From Pyrinomonadaceae bacterium (GTDB taxonomy: Bacteria > Acidobacteriota > Blastocatellia > Pyrinomonadales > Pyrinomonadaceae): 64,000 bases of DNA. The stretch covers positions 6,915-70,914 of the forward strand of contig DASXTE010000018.1 of the NCBI GenBank assembly GCA_036505595.1, read 5' to 3'. The position numbers and the translations under genes were made by a program. This document shows positions 6,897-39,236 of the stretch, piece by piece. Below the pieces are notes generated by a model. That model was not told the DNA's origin. It saw only the letters and a program-made list of their open reading frames with translations, and did not search any database. Positions within the stretch are counted from its first letter, which is position 1; every line of letters begins with the position of its first letter.

Positions 6897-6967
6897 GAGC
6901 CCTCCCGATCAACCACCCCACGCGGGCTGCCCGTGTGGGGACCCCGGCTGGTCGGGCTACTGCCCCG
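6897..6967. repeat. REP-like element (gccctccc ... ggtcgggctactgccccg family)
   Basis: It shares its head (gagccctccc) and tail (tggtcgggctactgccccg) with the 2180/2243 units. It has an internal hairpin ccccacgcggg/cccgtgtgggg. The tail supplies the last codons and stop of the minus-strand gene 6957..7595. Confidence 0.7.
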
Positions 6968-24381: not shown

Positions 24382-24433
24382 CGAATTAGTAATCTGGAAG
24401 GACATGACCAGACGGGAACTGACAGTTCAGTGC

Positions 24434-24629
24434 GCGAAGCGGACGCTTGGAAATAGCCCAGCGATTCATCGCTGGGTAATGGGCAAAAGAAGAATTAATG
24501 AGTCCGCAAAGCGGACGGCAGAAAATGTTGCGGGCCATACTCTGTCGCCCGTTTCACGGGCTTTTTGGTTCCTGCGGCGTTCGATTCCCAGCACTAAAGT
24601 GCTGGGCTATTGCCGCTCGTCCGCTTCGC
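24434..24629. repeat. large palindromic MITE-like element (same CGC[AG]AAGCGG family as 19283-19466)
   Basis: Left arm: cgcgaagcggacgcttggaaatagcccagcgattcatcgctggg. Right arm: cccagcactaaagtgctgggctattgccgctcgtccgcttcgcg. Central gtccgcaaagcggac. It is read through by the spurious 5' part of track ORF 24161..25309. Confidence 0.75.
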
Positions 24630-24664
24630 GGACTTCCAAACCCATCCGGACAAACGGAATTGTT

Positions 24665-28061: not shown

Positions 28062-29318
28062 TTGGCGAACTCACTGGCGGTAATTAATTGCTCACAGCTC
28101 GTCACGATGGCGGGCGCGCGCCGGCCTCGCACGGGCGGCGATCTGCGCCAGCTCTCGATCATTGAAGACGGCGCAATGCTCGTCCGCGACGACCGCATTG
28201 AAGCAGTCGGCCGCCGGCGCGAAATCGAAGCGTTGATTGATGCCGAATGCGACGTGATCGACGCGGGCAAGCGCGCCGTACTGCCCGGCTTCGTCGATGC
28301 GCACACGCATCCGGTTTTCGCCGGCAATCGCGCGAATGAATTCGAGCAGCGCACGGCCGGCGCGACTTATCGCGAGATTGCCGCTCGCGGTGGCGGCATT
28401 CGCGCCACGGTGCGAGCAACACGCAACGCCTCGCTTACCGATTTAGTCAAAGCCGGCAAGCGTTACGCGGATTGGTTTCTGCGCTGCGGCACGACCACAG
28501 TCGAAGCAAAGTCAGGTTACGGCCTCACGCTCGAAGACGAGCTGAAGATTCTGCGCGCGATCAGGCAACTCGATCAGCAGACCTCGCTGAATTATGTTCC
28601 CACGTTTCTCGGCGCGCATGATATTCCTTTTGAATACAAATCGCGGCGGCAGACTTATGTCGATCTCGTAATCAAAGAAATGCTGCCGCGCGTGGCGGAA
28701 GAGAAGCTGGCGGAATATTGCGACGTTTTCTGCGAAGAGGATGTCTTCACCACAGACGAAGCCTGGCAGATTCTTTCCGCGGCGCGTTGTCATGGACTTG
28801 GACTGCGCGTCCATGCGGATCAGCTTTCGTTATCAGGCGGCGCAAAGCTGGCGGCCGAATTGAATGTGGCAACGGCGGATCACCTCGAACACACGGACGC
28901 AACTGGAATAGCCGCGCTGAAAGCTACGAAAGTCCAACCCGTCCTGTTGCCTGGTTCGGTTTACGCGCTCGGATCGAATCGCTATCCGGCGGCACGAGAC
29001 ATGATCGACGCGGGGCTGGCGGTCGTGCTCGCGACTGATTTTAATCCAGGTTCTTCACCGACACCTTCGATGGCTCTGATTCTTTCGCTCGCGTGCACGC
29101 AGATGAAGATGACGCCCTCCGAAACGATCACCGCGGCGACAATCAACGCGGCCTACTCACTCGGCCGTGGCGACGAAATCGGATCACTGGAAAGGGGCAA
29201 GCGCGCCGACTTCGTGATTCATGATGTGTCCGACTATCGCGAGCTGCCCTACTGGTTTGGGATCGAGCATCCGTGGCGCGTGTATACGGGAGGTAAACTC
29301 GCTTATGACTGTGCGTAG
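28062..29318 (+). CDS. hutI: imidazolonepropionase
   Basis: 418 aa. [37 protein letters not shown] and amidohydrolase metal ligands. No other hut genes in the window. Confidence 0.9.
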
Positions 29319-29358
29319 CGCAAGTTGCTAACTTGCGTCCGCAACTTAACAAGTTGCG
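29319..29358. promoter_or_regulatory. two tandem 19-bp perfect palindromes (possible operator pair or hutI terminator)
   Basis: CGCAAGTTgctAACTTGCG (29319-29337) and CGCAACTTaacAAGTTGCG (29340-29358). They end 17 nt upstream of the -35 hexamer at 29375. Confidence 0.5.
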
Positions 29359-29374
29359 CTACAAAAAATTTCCG

Positions 29375-29403
29375 TTGACGACATTCATCTCCTAATTTAT
29401 CAT
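29375..29403 (+). promoter_or_regulatory. sigma-70-type promoter
   Basis: TTGACG, a 17-nt spacer, then TATCAT. Confidence 0.6.
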
Positions 29404-29417
29404 CACGCTTAACACTG

Positions 29418-29433
29418 GAAAGGAGGTGATCCA
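29418..29433 (+). promoter_or_regulatory. extended Shine-Dalgarno: 16-nt complement of the conserved 16S rRNA 3' tail
   Basis: GAAAGGAGGTGATCCA is the reverse complement of ..UGGAUCACCUCCUUUC, the conserved bacterial 16S 3' terminus. Confidence 0.7.
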
Positions 29434-29440
29434 AAAATAT

Positions 29441-29476
29441 ATGAGTACAAATCACAGTGAGGTGGCTGAGACCTAG
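29441..29476 (+). CDS. possible 11-codon leader mini-ORF (MSTNHSEVAET)
   Basis: The ATG is 14 nt after the GGAGG core. The TAG stop sits in the loop of hairpin ctgagac-cta-gtctcag (29466-29482), which overlaps a second hairpin (29478-29518). Confidence 0.35.
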   Translation: MSTNHSEVAET

Positions 29477-29587
29477 TCTCAGGATCAATCCTCGAAATGT
29501 TCGGATTGTTATCCTGAGTAAGTCACTGTGACACCTTCTTTCCGAAGGTCCGGAGACCGAAGGTCAATCCAAACAGTTCACCGGAAA

Positions 29588-29620
29588 GCCGCTCGGCGAG
29601 CAATCGCGAGCGGCTTTTCT
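29588..29620 (+). terminator. intrinsic terminator ending the leader transcript
   Basis: Stem gccgctcg(g)cga, GCAA tetraloop, stem tcgcgagcggc, followed by TTTTCT. It lies about 100 nt upstream of the GTG start at 29722. Confidence 0.7.
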
Positions 29621-29721
29621 TCTCTGCACGAAGTCACTAAACTCTCTTTGCATGCCATTGAACGCTGCTCGCGTCATGTGCATCCAAGAATCACGATAGA
29701 AAACTCCGCACCTTGTAGCAA

Positions 29722-32700
29722 GTGTCAGAAAAGCTGTCGAATTCCCCCGTTTTTTACGATCCGCGCGGCCGTCGCTGGCGTCACGTACGTCGCACGTGGC
29801 TGGCGCTGGGTGTCCTGGCGACAATCGTCGTCGGGATCTTTATTGCCAGCGTCCTCGCAAATCCAGTTCTACCGCACTTGAATCTGCGGCCGTTGGCAAC
29901 GCTTCCCCGCGCTTCCGACATTAAGCCAAAAGCACCCGCGCCGATCCCGAATGCGCGCGAACTAAGAGCGAAAAAAGCAGAAGCCGAACTGCAAAAGGTT
30001 TACCAGCAAGTGAAGCGCGTGCCGGGCCGCCGCTCAGAGTTCTTGCCCGTCGCGCCGCCCCCGGCGAACACTCCCCTTCCGGCGCCCGAGGCGGCTAACG
30101 GCAAACAGCTCGCCATCGGTTTTTACATCAATTGGGATGAATCGAGTTACGCGTCGTTGCAGCGCAACCTCGACCATCTCGATTGGATCGTCGCGCAATG
30201 GGCGCACATCGTAGATGCCAAGCCGGACGAAAATTCGATTGATACCGAAGTCGATATCAAGGCGCTCAATCTGATTCGCGAAAAGCGCCCCCAGATTTCG
30301 ATCCTGCCGATGGTGCAGAACCTCGATGACGAGAAATGGCAGCCGGACGTTTTGGCGCGCGCCGTCGCCGACGAACAGTCGCGGCAGAAACTAGTCGCGT
30401 CGTTGCTACAGTTCGTTACTGGTAACAAGTTCGCCGGCATCTGCGTTGATTTTGAAGAACCGAAGAAAGAAACGCAGCCGAACCTGCTCACGTTCATGCA
30501 GGAGCTGCACAACGCGTTTCAAGCGCGCGGCTTGCTGGTCGTGCAAGCGGTGCCTTTTGATGACGAAGCCTGGAACTATCGAGCATACGCTGCGGCCAAC
30601 GATTACCTGATGTTGATGGCGTACGACGAGCATTGGGCGGGAAACGTCGCAGGTTCAGTCGCGTCGCAACAGTGGTATGAGCATCTGCTCGCGCAACGCC
30701 TCCGAGATTTGGATCCATCGAAAACAATAGTTGCACTGGGCAACTATGGCTACAACTGGACGGAAGGCGCCGACAGTCCGGAAGAAGTCAGCGTCCAGCA
30801 AGCTCTGATCGATGCGATGGAGTCGGAGGCGCAAATCGACTTCGATGCCGACACGCGCAATCCACATTACGAGTACGACGAAGAGGACAACTCGCATCAC
30901 ATCGTGTGGTTTCTTGACAGCGTGACGGCGTTCAACGAGATGCGCGCGGCGAGCGGCTATCACCCGGCAGGTTACGCGCTGTGGCGGCTCGGCTCGGAAG
31001 ATCCTTCGATCTGGTCAATCTTCGGCAGCGGACAAGTGAACGTTGCTTCGGCAGATTCGCTGCGTCGCATCACGTATGGTTACGACGTTGACTTCGAAGG
31101 GACTGGCGAGCTGCTGCGGGTCGAATCGAGACCGCACGACGGCGCGCGCGGAATCTCGGTCGATCCTCAAACCGGTTTCATCGCTTCTGAAACCTACGAC
31201 AACAAGAACATCCCCACGTCCTACGTCATTGAACGCACCGGCGATCGCCCGGGCGATATTGCTCTGACCTTCGACGATGGGCCCGACCCAAGATGGACGC
31301 CGGCGATTCTCGATATTCTGAAGAAAGAAAATGTGCCGGCGACGTTTTTTGTGATTGGCAAGAACGGCGACGCCTACCCCGATCTGCTGCGGCGCATCGT
31401 CGACGAAGGTCACGAAGTCGGTAACCACACCTACACGCATCCGAACCTCGGCGAAATTCCCGGGCGGGTCGTCGATTTGGAATTGAACGCGACGCAGCGC
31501 CTGATTGAATCGATCACCGGACGCTCGACGGTGCTGTTTCGTCCGCCGTACTTCGGTGACGCGGAAGCCGACAAGCCGGACGAAGTCGAATCGGCGATCC
31601 GGGCGCGGGACCTGGGCTACGTGATGGTCGGGGTGCGCATCGACCCAAACGACTGGAAACCCGGCACGACCGCGGATCAAATAGTCAGGAACACCATAGA
31701 ACGCGCCGAAGACAAAAATCCTGACACCCGAGGCGAGGTCGTCCTGCTTCACGATTCGGGTGGCGATCGCAGCGCAACAATCGCGGCGCTCCCGCAATTG
31801 ATTCACGAACTTCGCGCACGTGGATACAAGTTTGTTCCTGTCTCGGAACTCGGTGGCTGGACCCGCGATCAAATCATGCCGCCGTTACCGTCGAGCGAAA
31901 ATTTGTACACGCGCACTGACAAGCTGACGTTTCTCACGCTTTCGATTGGCGGATGGCTGATGCAGTGGGCGTTCGTAATCGGCATTGCTCTTGGCCTGAC
32001 GCGGCTGACGGTGATTGGCGCACTCGCGTTTGCGCAGTGGGTCCGCTCACGACGCCGCGAGCATGAACACACCGGTGAGCAGTTCGAGCCGTTCGTGTCA
32101 GTCATTGTTCCGGCTTACGACGAAGAGCAGGTGATCGAAAGCACGATTCGCAGTCTGCTGAATTCCGACTACCCACAGTTCGAAATAATCGTGGTCGATG
32201 ATGGGTCGGCCGATCGCACAAGCGAAGTCGTGCGTGAACATTTCGCGAGCGAACCACTCGTGCGTCTGTTCACGTTAACTAATGCCGGCAAAGCGTCAGC
32301 GCTGAATCACGGTCTGCGTCACGCCAAAGGCGAAGTAATCGTTGCACTCGACGCTGATACGCAGTTTCCATCCGAAACGATTCGCGCGCTGGCGCGGCGC
32401 TTTGTCGATCCGAAGATCGGCGCGGTCGCCGGCAATGCCAAGGTCGGCAATCGCATCAACATCGTCACGCGTTGGCAGGCGCTGGAGTACATCACTTCGC
32501 AGAACATGGATCGACGCGCATTCGTCAGCTTGAACTGCATCACGGTGGTGCCGGGCGCCGTCGGCGCGTGGCGTCGCGACTTGATCGAGCAATGCGGCGG
32601 ATTCAGCAACGACACGCTCGCCGAAGATCAAGACCTGACGCTGCAAATTCGCAAACTCGGCTACAAGATCGGTTACGAAGAGGCAGCCACTGCCTGGACC

Positions 32701-39145: not shown

Positions 39146-39236
39146 TGGCGGAGATGAGAGGATTCGAACCTCTGAAGGGCTTTTGACCCTTAACGGTTTA
39201 GCAAACCGCCGCCTTCAGCCACTCGGCCACATCTCC
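39146..39236 (-). tRNA. tRNA-Ser (anticodon GCT)
   Basis: Folded by hand. Acceptor GGAGATG/CATCTCC. 3-bp D stem (GCC/GGC). Anticodon stem GCGGT/ACCGT with loop TTGCTAA. Long variable arm AAGGG..CCCTT. T arm AGAGG-TTCGAAT-CCTCT. Discriminator G and an encoded CCA. Confidence 0.9.

Follow-up and report, generated by a model that had tools for sequence, protein, structure and literature searches.

Between the gene for an imidazolonepropionase-type amidohydrolase (hutI) and that for an exopolysaccharide synthase of 1160 aa (GH18-like, polysaccharide deacetylase and GT2 domains), a Pyrinomonadaceae bacterium (phylum Acidobacteriota; assembly GCA_036505595.1, contig DASXTE010000018.1) carries a short, highly structured interval, which raises the question of whether this interval serves the synthase gene or is a gene in its own right. 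We analyzed it within a stretch of 64,000 nt (positions 6,915 to 70,914 of the contig), hereafter called the window, whose coordinates are used throughout; all features of the element lie on the + strand. An original prediction, made from the letters of the window, had described the interval as a leader acting as a translation-sensing attenuator of the polysaccharide synthase or, as a second suggestion, as a ribosome-sequestering small RNA; the latter may hold. Our results point away from a leader and toward a free-standing small RNA (sRNA) gene with a ribosome-loading core, in which translation of a mini open reading frame (ORF) would remodel the RNA. We put the probability of this reading at roughly 0.6; that of its first half alone, a stand-alone sRNA with a ribosome-loading core, is higher. 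The support that the analysis itself provides consists of the conservation of the element, its helices, the conserved start, frame and stop of the mini-ORF, independence of the synthase, and peptide residues dictated by base pairs.

The predicted sRNA of ~210 nt (29411-29621) has a promoter and a terminator of its own and is in this sense the self-contained unit that the original prediction had described. Its sigma-70-type promoter (29375-29403) consists of a -35 element, TTGACG (29375-29380), a 17-nt spacer and a -10 element, TATCAT (29398-29403), with an A/T-rich tract before it. It matches the consensus at 10 of 12 positions, was also recovered by a promoter scan of the region (2 sites vs 0.5 expected) and places the putative transcription start at ~29410-29411. 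TTGACG-17-TATTAT occurs at the same position in all Pyrinomonadaceae relatives. At the other end, a G+C-rich hairpin (29585-29618; stem AAAGCCGCUCG ... CGAGCGGCUUU) followed by the U-rich tail TTTTCTTCT forms the strong intrinsic terminator (29585-29621). A simple terminator scan did not call it because the stem has a bulge; it is backed by the fold of the window RNA and by the alignment fold, in which seven of its pairs show compensatory changes. An RNA of 216 nt folded at -84.2 kcal/mol (z = -6.4), a stability that not one of 200 shuffled sequences reached. The feature set of the element is real and not a chance assembly. We also saw a second promoter-like match (TTAACA-18-AAAAAT, 9/12; 29409-29438), which overlaps the anti-16S stretch described below and is probably a by-product of the A-rich spacer.

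Looking for the element upstream of synthase orthologues, as had been proposed, showed it to be conserved. Among 80 metagenomic loci with synthase orthologues (56-79% identity over the first 400 residues), the invariant 13-mer GAAAGGAGGTGAT was found 249-557 nt upstream of the synthase in 69 and 1160-1370 nt upstream in 3 further loci. Seven of the 80 have <450 nt of upstream DNA, and the element is present in 72 of the 73 loci with enough of it, L039 being the only one without. Kept across the synthase loci are TTGACG-17-TATTAT, AACACTGGAAAGGAGGTGAT, ATGAGTTCTAATCACAGTGAGGTGGCTG, CAATCC-N-AACAGTTCACCGGAAAGCCG and the terminator; the DNA 3' of the terminator differs in length and content. A genome scan with a pattern of two invariant blocks (AAGGAGGTG, a gap of 15-45 nt, GTGAGGTGGCTG) gave at least 120 matches: 90 in Actinomycetota, 28 in Acidobacteriota, where they span Pyrinomonadaceae, other Blastocatellia, Terriglobia and Bryobacterales, 1 in a Heliobacteriaceae metagenome-assembled genome (MAG) and 1 chance match in an archaeal ORF. 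The Heliobacteriaceae match, the sole one in Firmicutes, closely resembles the element found in a Blastocatellia MAG (L100 7665-7840, L160 2711-2887). Its contig may be mis-binned, and the presence of the family in Firmicutes is therefore uncertain. Viral contigs gave 0 matches to the pattern, and we rejected a phage origin.

At the gathering threshold, Rfam reported nothing in the element region; permissive thresholds brought up weak matches to two sRNA models, Ms_IGR-5 and CC2171, and no others. Neither the gathering score nor an E limit of 10 gave any match of 29250-29800 to a cis-regulatory family, c-di-GMP-I/II included, in agreement with the earlier statement that no known riboswitch class is recognizable here. 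The actinobacterial pattern matches are Rfam RF02471, Ms_IGR-5, with scores of 85-185 bits. Acidobacterial elements align to the full model (1-184) with 52.3 (L138, above gathering), 43.3, 41, 34.9 and 23.4 bits, and the window does so with 16.8 bits (E = 0.13 in a 551-nt search), short of the gathering score of 45. The window has every Ms_IGR-5 block, arranged as in the actinobacterial members of 85-185 bits: ACAC-N, GGAAAGGAGGUG, a start codon in frame, N'-GUGAGGUGGCUG, a stop two codons on, AAUCC-N-CAG-N-YACC and a terminal hairpin. Because of this score gradient and the identical block order, we regard the window element as a divergent acidobacterial relative of Ms_IGR-5, beyond the reach of the curated model. 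The structure is shared as well, since the same first helix (P1) with its covarying pair is present; P1 covaries across phyla, and P3, P4 and the terminator covary within Pyrinomonadaceae. Membership in the RF02471 lineage had escaped the original prediction, as had a long-range helix and an internal copy of the 16S tail. The family is already catalogued in Rfam, and the element is not a new kind. It differs from Ms_IGR-5 in its acidobacterial host (Pyrinomonadaceae), in being A+T-richer, in a classic U-tailed terminator, and in a central domain made of the P4 hairpin and a copy of the 16S tail predicted to be able to mask the docking site. Ms_IGR-5 is an actinobacterial sRNA found in M. smegmatis in 2013; it is an expressed sRNA unit in Streptomyces (S. 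lividans, S. avermitilis; PMC8079986, PMC8780764) and is ribosome-protected in Ribo-seq (ribosome profiling) of M. abscessus and M. smegmatis (PMC4974804). Literature searches on Ms_IGR-5, RF02471, CC2171, Rv0813c-region sRNAs and the motif returned mentions of expression and Ribo-seq and no assigned function.

If the element were a translation-sensing attenuator, formation of the terminator, and with it synthase expression, would depend on how a ribosome moves along the mini-ORF. The parts stand in the right order for this, with promoter, mini-ORF, alternative hairpins and terminator lying co-directional with a synthase gene 100 nt downstream, and the arrangement recurs in the 72 of 73 Pyrinomonadaceae loci. 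The synthase starts at a GTG (29722) that, on reading 29100-29900, is seen to lack a Shine-Dalgarno, as had been noted, and between terminator and synthase no promoter-like site was detected in the window. Considering the wider distribution, however, we find this reading very unlikely. The synthase lies downstream of the element in only 5 of the 120 genome matches listed. A conserved nitrobindin-like gene follows the element in convergent orientation in 27 actinobacterial loci, and a NUDIX gene does so in 8 Terriglobia loci; UbiX-like genes are also among the Terriglobia neighbours, and the neighbouring protein of actinobacterial members is not constant. Within Pyrinomonadaceae, the element stays beside hutI where the synthase is absent (L169, L132, L085 and L170), and in L169 the next gene is again convergent. 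In L071 an ORF of 344 aa (1358-2392) stands between element and synthase, and gaps of similar size occur in L070 and L058. The ORF, an insertion of one sub-lineage of Pyrinomonadaceae that was read in L071 only, looks secreted and has a TonB-C-like end. Elsewhere the spacer between element and synthase ranges from ~40 to ~350 nt and holds unrelated palindromes, and in most relatives a conserved promoter-like block, TTGACT-18-TATAGA, which fails the rules of our scan and is degenerate in the window, follows the terminator. Relatives carry a conserved block, CTTGACTTATCAACCCGCGCACCGTTATAGACATCAAA, upstream of the synthase, degenerate in the window. Comparison of Actinomycetota, Terriglobia and Pyrinomonadaceae revealed no functional neighbour common to the phyla and only clade-level synteny. 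Therefore, from the few synthase-linked matches, the convergent neighbours, the synthase-less loci and the inserted ORF, the order hutI - element - synthase appears to be clade-level gene order rather than a leader relationship. The RNA itself argues in the same direction. Both conformers of the window RNA leave the terminator intact, and no alternative fold involves its stem. The mini-ORF peptide, MSTNHSEVAET, has no repeated codon or regulatory codon run, and its variable residues follow base pairs. Like the trp/his/thr-type attenuators, the element has a promoter followed by a short ORF, hairpins and an intrinsic terminator, but it lacks an antiterminator competing with the terminator, regulatory codon runs and a constant downstream gene.

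What the family does conserve includes a long complement of the 16S rRNA tail. The free 16S rRNA 3' tail is the complement of docking site SD1, GAAAGGAGGUGAUCCA (DNA GAAAGGAGGTGATCCA; 29418-29433), the 16-nt anti-16S stretch of the original prediction. This stretch is unique: the 16-mer had no other match in the window, even with 3 mismatches, and the next-longest exact match to the anti-16S-tail sequence on either strand of the 64 kb was 10 nt. Thirteen of its bases (29418-29430) are invariant in Pyrinomonadaceae relatives. No 16S gene was found in the window or the fetched loci, where all GGATCACCTCCTTTC matches were the element itself. At the positions that the search pattern left free, a pair or wobble with the 16S tail is possible in 86, 99, 100, 99, 100, 100, 84 and 88% of 161 unique sequences; pairing spans 17 nt and then falls to ~20%. 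The common substitutions in this stretch are A/G opposite U and C/U opposite G only, a pattern characteristic of pairing to a constant partner outside the RNA. The invariant 13-mer presumably corresponds to the single-stranded 16S tail after helix 45, and the complementarity would stop approximately where helix 45 begins.

Such a site might act without any translation, as a decoy for the 16S 3' tail of 30S or 70S particles that masks the anti-Shine-Dalgarno and lowers or re-biases initiation, e.g., toward leaderless mRNAs. The complementarity, at 13 invariant bases and 17 with wobble, does go far past the needs of initiation, the near-consensus promoter is preceded by an A/T-rich tract, and ribosome protection of Ms_IGR-5 has been reported (PMC4974804). 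Moreover, CC2171 (RF01867), an unrelated-looking alphaproteobacterial sRNA that is Northern-validated in Caulobacter and Methylorubrum and has no assigned function (10.1101/2022.01.24.477521), has the same 16-nt stretch at its 5' end. Titration of this kind nevertheless does not account for how strictly start codon, frame and stop position are kept and would need an RNA copy number comparable to the number of ribosomes, and in Pyrinomonadaceae the docking site is predicted to be largely paired; we consider it unlikely. CC2171 itself is like the element in its 5' end, AACA..GAAAGGAGGUGAUCCA, identical over the 16-nt anti-16S stretch, in a start codon after that stretch and in a terminator at the end. 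It has neither the GUGAGGUGGCUG block nor the AAUCC..CAG..YACC motif, and the window scored only 22.6 bits against its model (gathering score 75), with the 5' 24 nt and the terminator aligned. The likeness is confined to both ends and may be analogy rather than homology.

The helices were derived from an alignment fold of 28 Pyrinomonadaceae-type elements and a cross-phylum alignment of 27 sequences. P1 pairs CACUG (29413-29417) with CAGUG (29455-29459) and encloses the docking site and the start codon. Its fourth pair occurs in all four Watson-Crick forms, both among 155 unique sequences (U-A 62, G-C 50, C-G 12, A-U 10) and in the cross-phylum alignment (G-C 10, U-A 4, A-U 2, C-G 2), where 96% of cells are paired, compared with 27-40% when the partner is slid. 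P2 is the long-range helix between GGUGGCUG (29461-29468), inside the invariant block GUGAGGUGGCUG, and CAGUUCACC (29574-29582), for which the family consensus is CAG-N1-3-YACC; it forms spontaneously in the window fold once P1 is enforced. The predicted P2 is supported by conservation, thermodynamics and G-C to G-U changes. The motif of which its 3' strand is part, AAUCC-N2-5-CAG-N1-3-YACC, is present in 166 of 183 elements. In P3, GACCU (29470-29474) pairs with AGGUC (29561-29565), which is followed by the conserved junction AAUCC (together 29561-29570); one P3 pair is A-U in 17 sequences and G-C in 11. P4 (CUCAGGAU / AUCCUGAG; 29478-29518), seen in the window fold and the alignment fold, is a hairpin of the lineage-specific central domain, and compensatory changes occur at two of its pairs. 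Together with those of P3 and the terminator, they bring the total to 12.

These helices recast part of the hairpin scheme that had been proposed. The second, overlapping hairpin corresponds to P4. The hairpin at 29466-29482, with the TAG in its loop, can be drawn in the window, but its pairing is not conserved, for relatives pair GACCU 29470-29474 with AGGUC 29561-29565. The direct repeat at 29542-29565 is likewise present as two copies of CCGAAGGTC (29542-29550 and 29557-29565), which are specific to the sub-lineage of the window and are the chance juxtaposition, in that sub-lineage, of the strand of a small hairpin and the P3 3' strand. The RF02471 consensus has another first helix (GGUGGU with GCUGCC), which was not supported in this analysis; cross-phylum counts favour CAC-N / N'-GUG and GGUGGCUG / CAG-N-YACC. 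Two minor observations concern the junction. GGAUUG in the P4 hairpin (29503-29508) is complementary to the invariant junction CAAUCC (29565-29570) and could form a pseudoknot with it, the variation at these positions being wobble-type or pair-breaking and in no case compensatory. A tRNA-like reading of AAUCC..ACC was dropped: the bases preceding it belong to P3, not to a T arm.

The 11-codon ORF (29441-29476) was present as predicted and encodes MSTNHSEVAET, with its ATG in the P1 loop and its TAG (29474-29476) at the foot of P3. As start we took whichever of ATG, GTG and TTG came first at 3 nt or more downstream of the anti-16S stretch, and we judged frame against GAG-GUG-GCU. By this rule the first start codon is in frame in all 146 unique sequences; ATG counts by frame were 109, 11 and 13. 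In 145 of the 146, GCU is followed by a stop at a distance of exactly two codons, and TAG, TGA and TAA all serve as this stop. The ORF has 11 to 19 codons and stays in frame, the N-terminal part differing in length and sequence, while the C-terminal E-V-A-x-x is conserved across phyla. The E-V-A codons form the P2 strand and lie in the invariant block, GCU included. The residue before them is S, R, C or G because the first base of its codon (A29456 in the window) is the covarying partner in the fourth pair of P1. Among 63 unique Pyrinomonadaceae-type sequences we found no synonymous variation, the unbiased subset being the ~70 synthase-linked loci.

That the 11-residue peptide is itself the functional product, i.e., that this is a small-protein gene, would agree with the conserved frame, with the E-V-A-x-x C-terminus common to the phyla and with the mycobacterial Ribo-seq signal (PMC4974804). 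It is highly improbable, since the residue before E-V-A tracks the closing base pair of P1, E-V-A is encoded by an invariant nucleotide block, synonymous variation is lacking in the 63 sequences, and neither the length nor the sequence of the N-terminal part is fixed. The invariant GCU is a rare codon in high-G+C genomes. The peptide sequence does not look to be under selection at the protein level; its residues appear to be set by base pairs. Since the peptide sequence follows the RNA helices, selection appears to act on translation itself, with termination at that position, and not on the peptide. When a ribosome stands on the stop codon, an internal second Shine-Dalgarno-like sequence, GAGGUGG (29459-29465; overlapping the P2 5' strand), precedes the P-site codon by 5-8 nt. 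This is the Shine-Dalgarno spacing of initiation, and the sequence may keep the terminating ribosome in place. Examples of dual-function sRNAs that contain a small ORF are SgrS/SgrT, RNAIII/hld and SR1/SR1P. The element is like them in being a structured sRNA with a presumably translated ORF, and unlike them in that its peptide sequence follows the RNA helices.

In Pyrinomonadaceae, the docking site has a counterpart within the RNA. Elements of this type carry a near-copy of the 16S tail, CACCUUCUUUCC or CCUCCUUUC, in the central domain (52 of 55 unique sequences); in the window, CACUGUG (29524-29530) is followed by CACCUUCUUUCC (29532-29543), and the two together (29524-29543) can pair with CACAGUG and SD1. 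Terriglobia elements carry a comparable GACCACCUCUU, and actinobacterial members showed no tail copy above shuffled expectation. The best helix between tail copy and SD1 is 9-11 nt, vs an average of 7.5 for shuffled central domains. The minimum-energy fold of the window RNA, at -84.2 kcal/mol, pairs the tail copy with the docking site and CACUGUG with CACAGUG; the family fold with P1 and P2 has -77.2 kcal/mol. We rejected the tail-copy fold as the conserved ground state: among 63 relatives it is the minimum in only 10, and the family fold in the other 53. Fold prediction along the order of transcription has P1 form first, with the masking fold possible only after ~125-140 nt.

A related possibility is that docking site and mini-ORF only shield the 5' end from nucleases, while the working part of a base-pairing sRNA lies elsewhere, in Pyrinomonadaceae in the CCUCCUUUC-type copy, which would occlude the Shine-Dalgarnos of target mRNAs. 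A stabilizing sequence of this sort, STAB-SD, reads GAAAGGAGG. Strong 5'-proximal Shine-Dalgarnos stabilize Gram-positive RNAs even without translation (PMC3997798, citing Agaisse and Lereclus 1996); in stabilizers of this kind, such as that of the B. thuringiensis cryIIIA leader, a 5'-proximal Shine-Dalgarno-type sequence pairs with the 16S tail but is not necessarily used by the main ORF (PMC3997798). SD1, ~8-9 nt from the putative 5' end and complementary over up to 17 nt, corresponds to such a sequence, and the retention of the tail copy in 52 of 55 Pyrinomonadaceae-type elements, with a similar element in Terriglobia, suits the base-pairing role. STAB-SD lies in the leader of a long mRNA, whereas the element is a 210-nt RNA that ends at a terminator, has a conserved mini-ORF of its own and is complementary to the 16S tail over a much longer stretch. 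Stabilization alone does not require a conserved stop position, the best helix to SD1 has 9-11 nt against the shuffled average of 7.5, and the tail copy is absent from actinobacterial members and therefore cannot be the family-wide function. We regard this explanation as quite unlikely.

For the ribosome-loaded sRNA that we favour, the following sequence of events may be envisaged. A 30S subunit would dock on the 16S-tail-complementary stretch ~8-9 nt from the 5' end, and translation of the mini-ORF would then unzip the RNA from P1 to P3, with the peptide a by-product. The RNA would thus alternate between a folded and a ribosome-opened state and could report on, or exploit, the supply of free ribosomes; candidate targets of the switch are the stability of the RNA, a base-pairing seed or the ribosomes themselves. 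In Pyrinomonadaceae, the internal near-copy of the 16S tail might pair with the docking site and close it, competing with the ribosome. A bolder extension, which we think rather unlikely as a whole, is that the Ms_IGR-5 lineage and its acidobacterial branch constitute a ribosome-directed riboregulator of at least two phyla, which captures the whole free 16S tail, uses forced translation of the mini-ORF as its switch, senses the pool of free 30S subunits or masks the anti-Shine-Dalgarno to re-bias initiation, and in Acidobacteriota has the tail copy as an auto-inhibitor.

Several points weigh against an sRNA gene remodeled by translation. The Rfam score of the window element is far below gathering, as given above. 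The pattern-scan matches were chosen by fixed AAGGAGGTG and GTGAGGTGGCTG, which means that outside Pyrinomonadaceae the invariance of these blocks is no separate finding; nor are the counts independent events, the sequences being related. For the 16S 3' end we used GGCUGGAUCACCUCCUUUCU, which we take to be the common bacterial form and which does not come from these genomes. The spacing from GGAGG to AUG in the window is long, at 14 nt, and the predicted probability of the docking site being unpaired is 0.14 in Pyrinomonadaceae-type RNAs, compared with 0.46 in actinobacterial members. The changes in P2 are from G-C to G-U only and none is compensatory, because its 5' strand is invariant. The promoter scan found no promoter-like site between 29620 and 29722 of the window, and some read-through into the synthase may occur in this genome. 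Lastly, expression evidence for the family comes from the Streptomyces and mycobacterial members in the literature, and transcription of the acidobacterial elements is predicted.

On these results, a tempting but wrong annotation, that of a regulatory leader of the exopolysaccharide synthase, is removed, and a 13-year-old orphan sRNA family is extended from Actinomycetota into Acidobacteriota, where most members escape the curated model. The acidobacterial branch missed by that model, with its tail-copy domain facing the docking site, is new. For the family as a whole, the new features are the complementarity to the whole free 16S tail with wobble-compatible substitutions only, the mini-ORF with conserved start, frame and stop and residues set by RNA helices, and the revised helices. 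The papers searched describe neither this complementarity nor such a mini-ORF for the family, nor the tail copy of its acidobacterial branch. Together, these features make a concrete, testable functional hypothesis for a widespread sRNA with family members in the genetically tractable M. smegmatis and Streptomyces.

Some minor features of the window lie outside the element. Directly 3' of the hutI stop, at 29319-29358, are two tandem 19-nt palindromes, CGCAAGTTGCTAACTTGCG and CGCAACTTAACAAGTTGCG, the sole copies in the window. Similar CGCAAACT..AGTTTGCG palindromes occur in the variable post-terminator spacers of L062, L067, L074 and L078, and the palindromes look like repetitive extragenic palindromic (REP)-type intergenic repeats of Pyrinomonadaceae. 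Two matches to Acido-Lenti-1 RNA (RF01687), oppositely oriented and ~110 nt apart, scored just above the gathering score (24429-24476, - strand, 38.2 bits; 24587-24634, + strand, 37.1 bits), and a tRNA gene was found at 39149-39236 on the - strand (60 bits).

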